Position numbers and translations under genes: made by a program
Notes under the pieces: model-generated
The model's database searches: none
Told to the model about the DNA's origin: nothing
The model's input: the letters and a program-made list of their open reading frames with translations, nothing else
Assembly (NCBI RefSeq): GCF_003334255.1
Contig: NZ_QOWU01000010.1
Direction: 5' to 3' (one strand)
Length of the DNA stretch: 64,000 bases
From: Escherichia coli
GTDB lineage: Bacteria; Pseudomonadota; Gammaproteobacteria; Enterobacterales; Enterobacteriaceae
Shown here: piece by piece, positions 2,081 to 3,337 of the stretch
How positions within the stretch are numbered: position 1 is the first letter of the stretch
How the letters are laid out: every line of letters begins with the position of its first letter

Positions 2081-3337
2081 ATGGGATCTGATGCGAAAAA
2101 CTTGATGAGCGACGGGAACGTGCAAATTGTTAAGACCGGCGAGGTCATTGGCGCGACGCAACTTACTGAAGGCGAGTTGATTGTTGAAGCTGGCGGAAGA
2201 GCCGAAAATACCGTGGTCACGGGGGCTGGCTGGTTGAAAGTGGCAACCGGTGGGATCGCCAAATGCACACAGTACGGTAACAATGGCACGCTATCGGTCA
2301 GCGATGGTGCCATTGCCACAGATATTGTTCAGTCCGAGGGAGGCGCAATTAGTCTCTCTACGCTCGCTACGGTTAATGGCCGCCATCCCGAAGGTGAATT
2401 CAGCGTTGATAAAGGTTATGCCTGCGGTTTGTTGCTGGAAAATGGCGGTAACCTGCGTGTACTGGAAGGACATCGCGCGGAAAAAATCATTCTCGATCAA
2501 GAGGGCGGCCTGTTGGTTAATGGGACAACCTCAGCGGTCGTGGTAGATGAAGGTGGTGAATTGTTGGTGTATCCAGGTGGGGAAGCCAGCAATTGTGAGA
2601 TTAATCAGGGCGGCGTTTTTATGCTGGCCGGGAAAGCCAGTGATACGTTGCTTGCTGGTGGCACCATGAATAATCTCGGTGGTGAAGACTCTGACACTAT
2701 TGTTGAGAATGGATCCATTTATCGTCTGGGGACGGATGGCCTTCAGCTCTACAGTTCCGGTAAGACGCAAAACCTGTCCGTGAATGTGGGTGGTCGGGCT
2801 GAAGTGCATGCCGGTACGCTGGAAAACGCGGTAATACAAGGTGGGACAGTGATCCTGTTGTCACCCACCAGCGCGGACGAAAATTTTGTCGTAGAGGAAG
2901 ATCGCGCACCGGTTGAACTGACCGGGAGTGTTGCATTACTGGACGGCGCTTCAATGATTATTGGTTATGGCGCAGAGCTGCAACAATCAACGATTACTGT
3001 ACAGCAGGGCGGTGTGTTGATTCTAGACGGCAGTACGGTAAAAGGTGACAGTGTCACTTTCATTGTTGGTAACATCAATCTGAATGGTGGAAAACTGTGG
3101 CTGATCACTGATGCGGCAACGCATGTGCAACTGAAAGTGAAACGCCTGCGCGGAGAGGGAGCGATTTGCCTGCAAACCAGTGCAAAAGAAATTTCACCTG
3201 ACTTCATCAATGTGAAAGGGGAAGTTACCGGGGATATACACGTTGAGATAACAGATGCCAGTCGGCAAACTCTGTGTAACGCTCTGAAATTACAGCCAGA
3301 CGAAGACGGGATTGGCGCAACGCTCCAGCCTGCGTAA
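2081..3337 (+). CDS. ydhQ: YdhQ, autotransporter-adhesin-related protein (passenger-like beta-helix repeats, no obvious C-terminal barrel), 418 aa
   Basis: ORF translation rich in G/T/V/N repeats (GGxxxN.. motifs) typical of AIDA-like passenger domains; synteny next to mdtK. Confidence 0.88.
   Translation: MGSDAKNLMSDGNVQIVKTGEVIGATQLTEGELIVEAGGRAENTVVTGAGWLKVATGGIAKCTQYGNNGTLSVSDGAIATDIVQSEGGAISLSTLATVNGRHPEGEFSVDKGYACGLLLENGGNLRVLEGHRAEKIILDQEGGLLVNGTTSAVVVDEGGELLVYPGGEASNCEINQGGVFMLAGKASDTLLAGGTMNNLGGEDSDTIVENGSIYRLGTDGLQLYSSGKTQNLSVNVGGRAEVHAGTLENAVIQGGTVILLSPTSADENFVVEEDRAPVELTGSVALLDGASMIIGYGAELQQSTITVQQGGVLILDGSTVKGDSVTFIVGNINLNGGKLWLITDAATHVQLKVKRLRGEGAICLQTSAKEISPDFINVKGEVTGDIHVEITDASRQTLCNALKLQPDEDGIGATLQPA
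3045..3057. other. matS-consensus site (GTGACAGTGTCAC) for MatP, inside ydhQ
   Basis: Exact match to 13-bp palindromic consensus GTGACRNYGTCAC read directly in the sequence. Confidence 0.6.

Follow-up and report, generated by a model that had tools for sequence, protein, structure and literature searches.

MatP binds the 13-bp motif GTGACRNYGTCAC with a Kd of about 8 nM, and does so almost exclusively in Ter (PMC6907758). Mercier et al. (2008) described 23 matS sites with the consensus GTGACRNYGTCAC, spread over 1135-1914 kb in older MG1655 coordinates. Two sites of that series, “matS5 and matS21” in Mercier’s numbering, were without in vivo MatP binding (Cagliero et al., 2013). The catalogue of Seba et al. 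(2024; eLife 12:RP91185, PMC10945525) was drawn from three MatP ChIP-seq experiments, in which peaks had to reach at least 10x the background reads over at least 30 bp before being passed to MEME; it holds 28 matS sites, from matS1 (1136538) to matS28 (1974386).

By way of the matS sites, which act in cis, MatP keeps MukBEF away from the terminus and retains the sister termini at mid-cell until the cell divides. The signal of MukBEF at matS is dependent on MatP, which displaces MukBEF from ter (PMC4738335). Inhibition of MukBEF increases by degrees as matS become more numerous and denser, an effect that probably reflects unloading, and ZapB is MatP’s link from Ter to the divisome (PMC10945525). 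The abstract of a cryo-EM study of the MukBEF-MatP-matS complex is in line with displacement or unloading of MukBEF by MatP at matS.

The DNA considered here, a stretch of 64,000 nucleotides from E. coli referred to as the window (positions w), is collinear with the reverse complement of E. coli K-12 MG1655 ~1,684.3-1,747.6 kb. Their alignment consists of two blocks and contains 14 mismatches over 63.3 kb (99.98% identity), and positions convert as MG = 1748208 - w for w < ~12,160 and MG = 1748281 - w above. E. coli carries matP, with which mukBEF has co-evolved; matP lies ~0.7 Mb outside the window. MG1655 tus (1684259-1685188) corresponds to w63093-64022; the initial annotation correctly placed tus at the right edge of the window, though the gene is cut there, its first 22 nt falling beyond the last base. 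The features that matter for the argument are the following.

2081..3337, + strand: ydhQ coding sequence (b1664), 418 aa, AIDA-repeat putative adhesin-related protein
3045..3057, no strand assigned: matS21 in the numbering of Seba et al. (2024), GTGACAGTGTCAC inside ydhQ; MG1655 1745151-1745163
26352..26364, no strand assigned: matS20, GTGACCCTGTAAC on the window + strand, degenerate, inside ydhJ; MG1655 1721917-1721929
44267..44279, no strand assigned: matS19, GTGACACTGTCAC, exact consensus, inside ydgJ; MG1655 1704002-1704014

An IS insertion, a REP indel and 14 SNPs set the window strain apart from MG1655, and none of them is near the ydhQ site. Window 1 to ~596 is the 3’ end of an IS3-family insertion sequence that adjoins ydhS at ~w591-598 and is 99.8% identical to multi-copy “IS3 family transposase” elements of E. 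coli chromosomes and plasmids; ydhS (ORF 430..1077, minus strand) is broken by this element, unlike its MG1655 counterpart. At ~w12163-12221, between sodB and ydhP (MG ~1,736,055), the window is longer than MG1655 by a net 73 bp; the added DNA resembles one more REP-like unit, the GCCGCATCCGRCAAG motif being present in duplicate. Internal repeats at 39186-39706, with self-match offsets of ~96 bp and 88-91% identity, correspond to the repeat-rich portion of MG1655 rsxC.

The ORF at 2081..3337(+) carries the annotation ydhQ in every one of the 5,426 complete E. coli genomes. The initial annotation had seen an exact matS consensus palindrome within this gene, and the 13-mer GTGACAGTGTCAC is indeed found at 3045-3057, where it fits GTGACRNYGTCAC with 0 mismatches. 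Its context is ...aaaaggtgacagtgtcactttc..., with the flanks GTAAAAG on the left and TTTCATT on the right, and it overlaps the codons GGT GAC AGT GTC ACT, that is, G322-D-S-V-T326 of the protein. The ydhQ coding sequence simply accommodates the site, which has no known link to ydhQ function or expression. In strain AR_0013 (NZ_CP032204.1), ydhQ is annotated as a 5’-truncated pseudogene (“missing N-terminus”), and the matS 13-mer in it is intact.

With ten fixed bases and two two-fold positions, the chance expectation for GTGACRNYGTCAC is 64,000 x (1/4)^10 x (1/2)^2, or ~0.015 per window, counted once rather than doubled because the motif is self-complementary; the initial annotation had arrived at the same rate by correct arithmetic. 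A pattern search of the window returns two exact matches, 3045-3057 and 44267-44279, and 100 dinucleotide-preserving shuffles contain none (mean 0.00, maximum 0). Besides the ydhQ site noted initially, the window holds a second exact site, matS19, and the degenerate matS20. The enrichment extends over MG1655 1684-1980 kb, where 5 exact consensus sites occur in 296 kb vs ~0.07 expected. When up to 2 mismatches are allowed, the window yields 9 matches vs 7.4 expected, which is no enrichment; the signal therefore resides only in the exact matches to GTGACRNYGTCAC.

Two more matS-like words, with 2 mismatches each, lie inside ydhQ at window 2277-2289 and 2307-2319, and the Gly/Val/Thr-rich AIDA-repeat coding sequence of this gene seems prone to such near-matches. 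The palindrome could accordingly be read as a chance product of Gly/Val/Thr/Asp-rich AIDA-repeat coding sequence, without any function at the DNA level: these words (w2277 and w2307) make up 2/9 of the relaxed window matches, and composition thus leans matS-like. Against this reading stand the ~0.015 exact matches expected per 64 kb, the absence of any from the 100 shuffles, and the position of the site on the published list of MatP ChIP-seq peaks.

That position follows from the map. The ydhQ 13-mer falls at MG1655 1745151-1745163, and Supplementary file 1 of Seba et al. (2024) gives “matS21 1745151 bp”. Comparison with the published matS list and ChIP data, which the initial annotation had named as its own refutation test, thus finds the ydhQ site present, and supports the proposal of a MatP-binding matS in the terminus region. 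The 23-site K-12 list to which that annotation referred has been succeeded by the current list of 28 sites; the site itself is catalogued. Since the list derives from ChIP-seq, inclusion implies in vivo MatP occupancy of the site in MG1655. At 1,745,151 the site lies inside the Ter macrodomain (MG1655 ~1.14-1.97 Mb), on the left-replichore side of the E. coli terminus region. It therefore combines what defines a matS, namely palindrome fit, location in Ter, ChIP-listed occupancy (in MG1655, from the literature) and conservation across E. coli strains, and we regard it as almost certain that the ydhQ palindrome is the genuine, already catalogued matS21, a target of the Ter-macrodomain protein MatP. 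Other routes to the same record gave little: a literature text search for matS with ydhQ, ydgJ or ydhJ had as its sole match a paper using ydgJ as a marker locus, a text search for the numeric coordinates of the site retrieved irrelevant papers only, and matS coordinates are absent from the supplements of Nolivos 2016 (figures only) and Cagliero 2013.

The coordinate comparison was run on the assembled MG1655 interval 1,684,000-1,980,000. The published transposed coordinates carry a shift of 1,047,890 bp, verified on matS28 (3022276 - 1974386), and its application to the table in PMC10945525 gives matS22 at 1765213, matS25 at 1838826 and matS27 at 1916864. For matS20, 2769807 - 1047890 = 1721917, the start of the GTGACCCTGTAAC 13-mer, whereas “matS19 1704014 bp” in Supplementary file 1 of PMC10945525 is the last base of the w44267-44279 site. 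Every one of the eight derivable matS coordinates (1.70-1.98 Mb) marks exactly one end of a 13-mer resembling matS in the MG1655 sequence, which is the first base in seven of these sites and the last base in matS19, and eight coincidences out of eight validate the MG1655 mapping. Along MG1655, the spacing of matS19, matS20 and matS21 is 17.9 and 23.2 kb. The matS20 word GTGACCCTGTAAC has 2 mismatches to the strict consensus GTGACRNYGTCAC and yet is ChIP-listed, so ChIP-defined sites can depart from GTGACRNYGTCAC.

Two versions of the MG1655 sequence differ by IS-insertion offsets of roughly 0.8 and 2.0 kb. Allowing for such version offsets, Mercier’s range corresponds to matS1 (1136538) through matS27 (1916864) of Seba’s numbering. 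Two exact-consensus sites (1765213 and 1838826) lie to the right of the ydhQ site before 1916864, so that this site cannot have a number above 20 in the series of 23. By this count of the sites to its right, we infer that it is not the unbound “matS21” of Mercier’s numbering, and that identification was rejected.

A palindrome within a gene may also act in RNA, and a consensus scan flags 3042-3060(+) as terminator-like, with an 8-pair stem, a 3-nt loop, a T-rich tail and a predicted hairpin energy of -9.1 kcal/mol. An RNA hairpin or intrinsic terminator-like element in the ydhQ mRNA is nonetheless hardly credible. The fold is no better than that of shuffled sequences (z = -1.11; 28/200 shuffles at least as good), only 3 of the stem pairs are G-C, and the site is inside the coding sequence, 93 codons ahead of the ydhQ stop; an intrinsic terminator is marked by a stable G+C-rich hairpin and a U tract where a transcription unit ends, and 3042-3060 does not have this form. 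The scan is triggered by any 13-bp palindrome followed by TTTCATTGTT, which makes the flag a by-product of the palindrome, and a strong terminator-like hairpin is already present at 3344-3369, between ydhQ and mdtK. This latter hairpin is bidirectional, with 10-11 pairs, 7 of them G-C, and separates the two convergent genes.

Another regulator that recognises palindromes might be considered, e.g., one of the CRP-like TGTGA/TCACA type, as GTGACAGTGTCAC does contain GTGA...TCAC half-sites. They are 5 bp apart, however, and the half-sites of the CRP consensus are spaced by 6 bp. In addition, the consensus scan shows no promoter-like sites in 2800-3400, the site is deep inside a coding sequence, and it already has a documented ligand in MatP. 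We give this explanation next to no weight, and the palindrome is discussed below as matS21.

Variation at the site was followed at two scales. A contig search with YdhQ as the query added a single locus, in Escherichia sp. MOD1-EC7003, to an alignment of ydhQ from 14 E. coli sequences (97-100% identity range, window included). The form GTGACAGTGTCAC is present in 11/15 aligned sequences. Two others have GTGACGGTGTCAC (A6G, S324G), which still fits R, and Escherichia sp. MOD1-EC7003 has GTGACAATGTCAC (G7A, S324N), a change at N that likewise fits the consensus; the one sequence left, that of strain DE17, has GTGATAGTGTCAC (C5T, synonymous), in which the strict consensus is broken. Degenerate positions alone are thus altered in 3/4 variant sequences. 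This concentration of polymorphism at R and N speaks against a chance palindrome, although changes mostly at these positions are no more than what a constrained matS would be expected to show. The 13-mer as a whole has 3 variable columns vs 1.45 expected from the 140/1257 variable ydhQ columns of the 15 sequences, and this, by contrast, is in keeping with chance. With variability in the 13-mer no lower than across ydhQ as a whole, conservation by itself is no proof that MatP binding is under selection. Taken with the exact-match statistics and the ChIP-seq listing, an origin by chance is very improbable, and matS21 is again the preferred reading.

Allele frequencies were obtained from 5,426 complete E. 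coli genomes with 30-nt probes under the megablast rule of a 28-nt exact word, a match requiring the whole 13-mer to be identical. A consensus-fitting ydhQ site is found in at least 5,110 of them (94.2%): 3,802 have the A form, 1,113 the G form (A6G, S324G), and 17 + 178 the A form with left-flank variants. The C5T allele GTGATAGTGTCAC, a change at w3049 (matS position 5) that turns GAC into GAT, is found in 125/5,426 (2.3%), among them the type strain ATCC 11775; the remaining 191 (3.5%) are outside the probe calls. Its occurrence in 125 genomes means that the ydhQ site is dispensable, or tolerated in a weakened form, in some lineages. We entertain as a possible but rather doubtful idea that C5T weakens or abolishes MatP binding here. 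Should it do so, it would offer a natural test of the importance of an individual matS, and would hint that the three synonymous third-codon positions of ydhQ at fixed matS bases are normally kept by selection on the DNA rather than on the protein.

How matS21 would act can be outlined from the literature on its family. A MatP dimer, tetramerising on DNA, would bind the GTGAC/GTCAC half-sites of the ydhQ palindrome. From this site and roughly 27 other matS spread over ~0.84-1.0 Mb, MatP may unload the SMC complex MukBEF or exclude it from Ter; matS-bound MatP would also tie Ter to the division septum via ZapB, so that segregation of the sister termini is delayed. The ydhQ site would not act alone, being presumably one of ~28 redundant loading points for MatP.

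Confirmation of matS21 adds no new biology, as the site was already on an experimentally derived list; mildly new are only the allele frequencies of the ydhQ site and the finding that all three of matS19-21 are within the window. With respect to the matS family of Mercier et al. (2008), the ydhQ site is an exact consensus match inside the interval described there. Its companions matS19 (ydgJ) and matS20 (ydhJ) belong to the same family and, similarly, are located inside coding sequences. The closest counterpart is E. coli K-12 matS21, at the same locus and in the same gene: the MG1655 + strand reads GTGACACTGTCAC where the window + strand reads GTGACAGTGTCAC, and the site itself shows no difference within flanking DNA that is 99.98% identical. 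The host strain, by contrast, is not MG1655, from which it departs by the IS3-family insertion in ydhS, by what looks like one more REP-like unit and, over 63 kb, by 14 SNPs.
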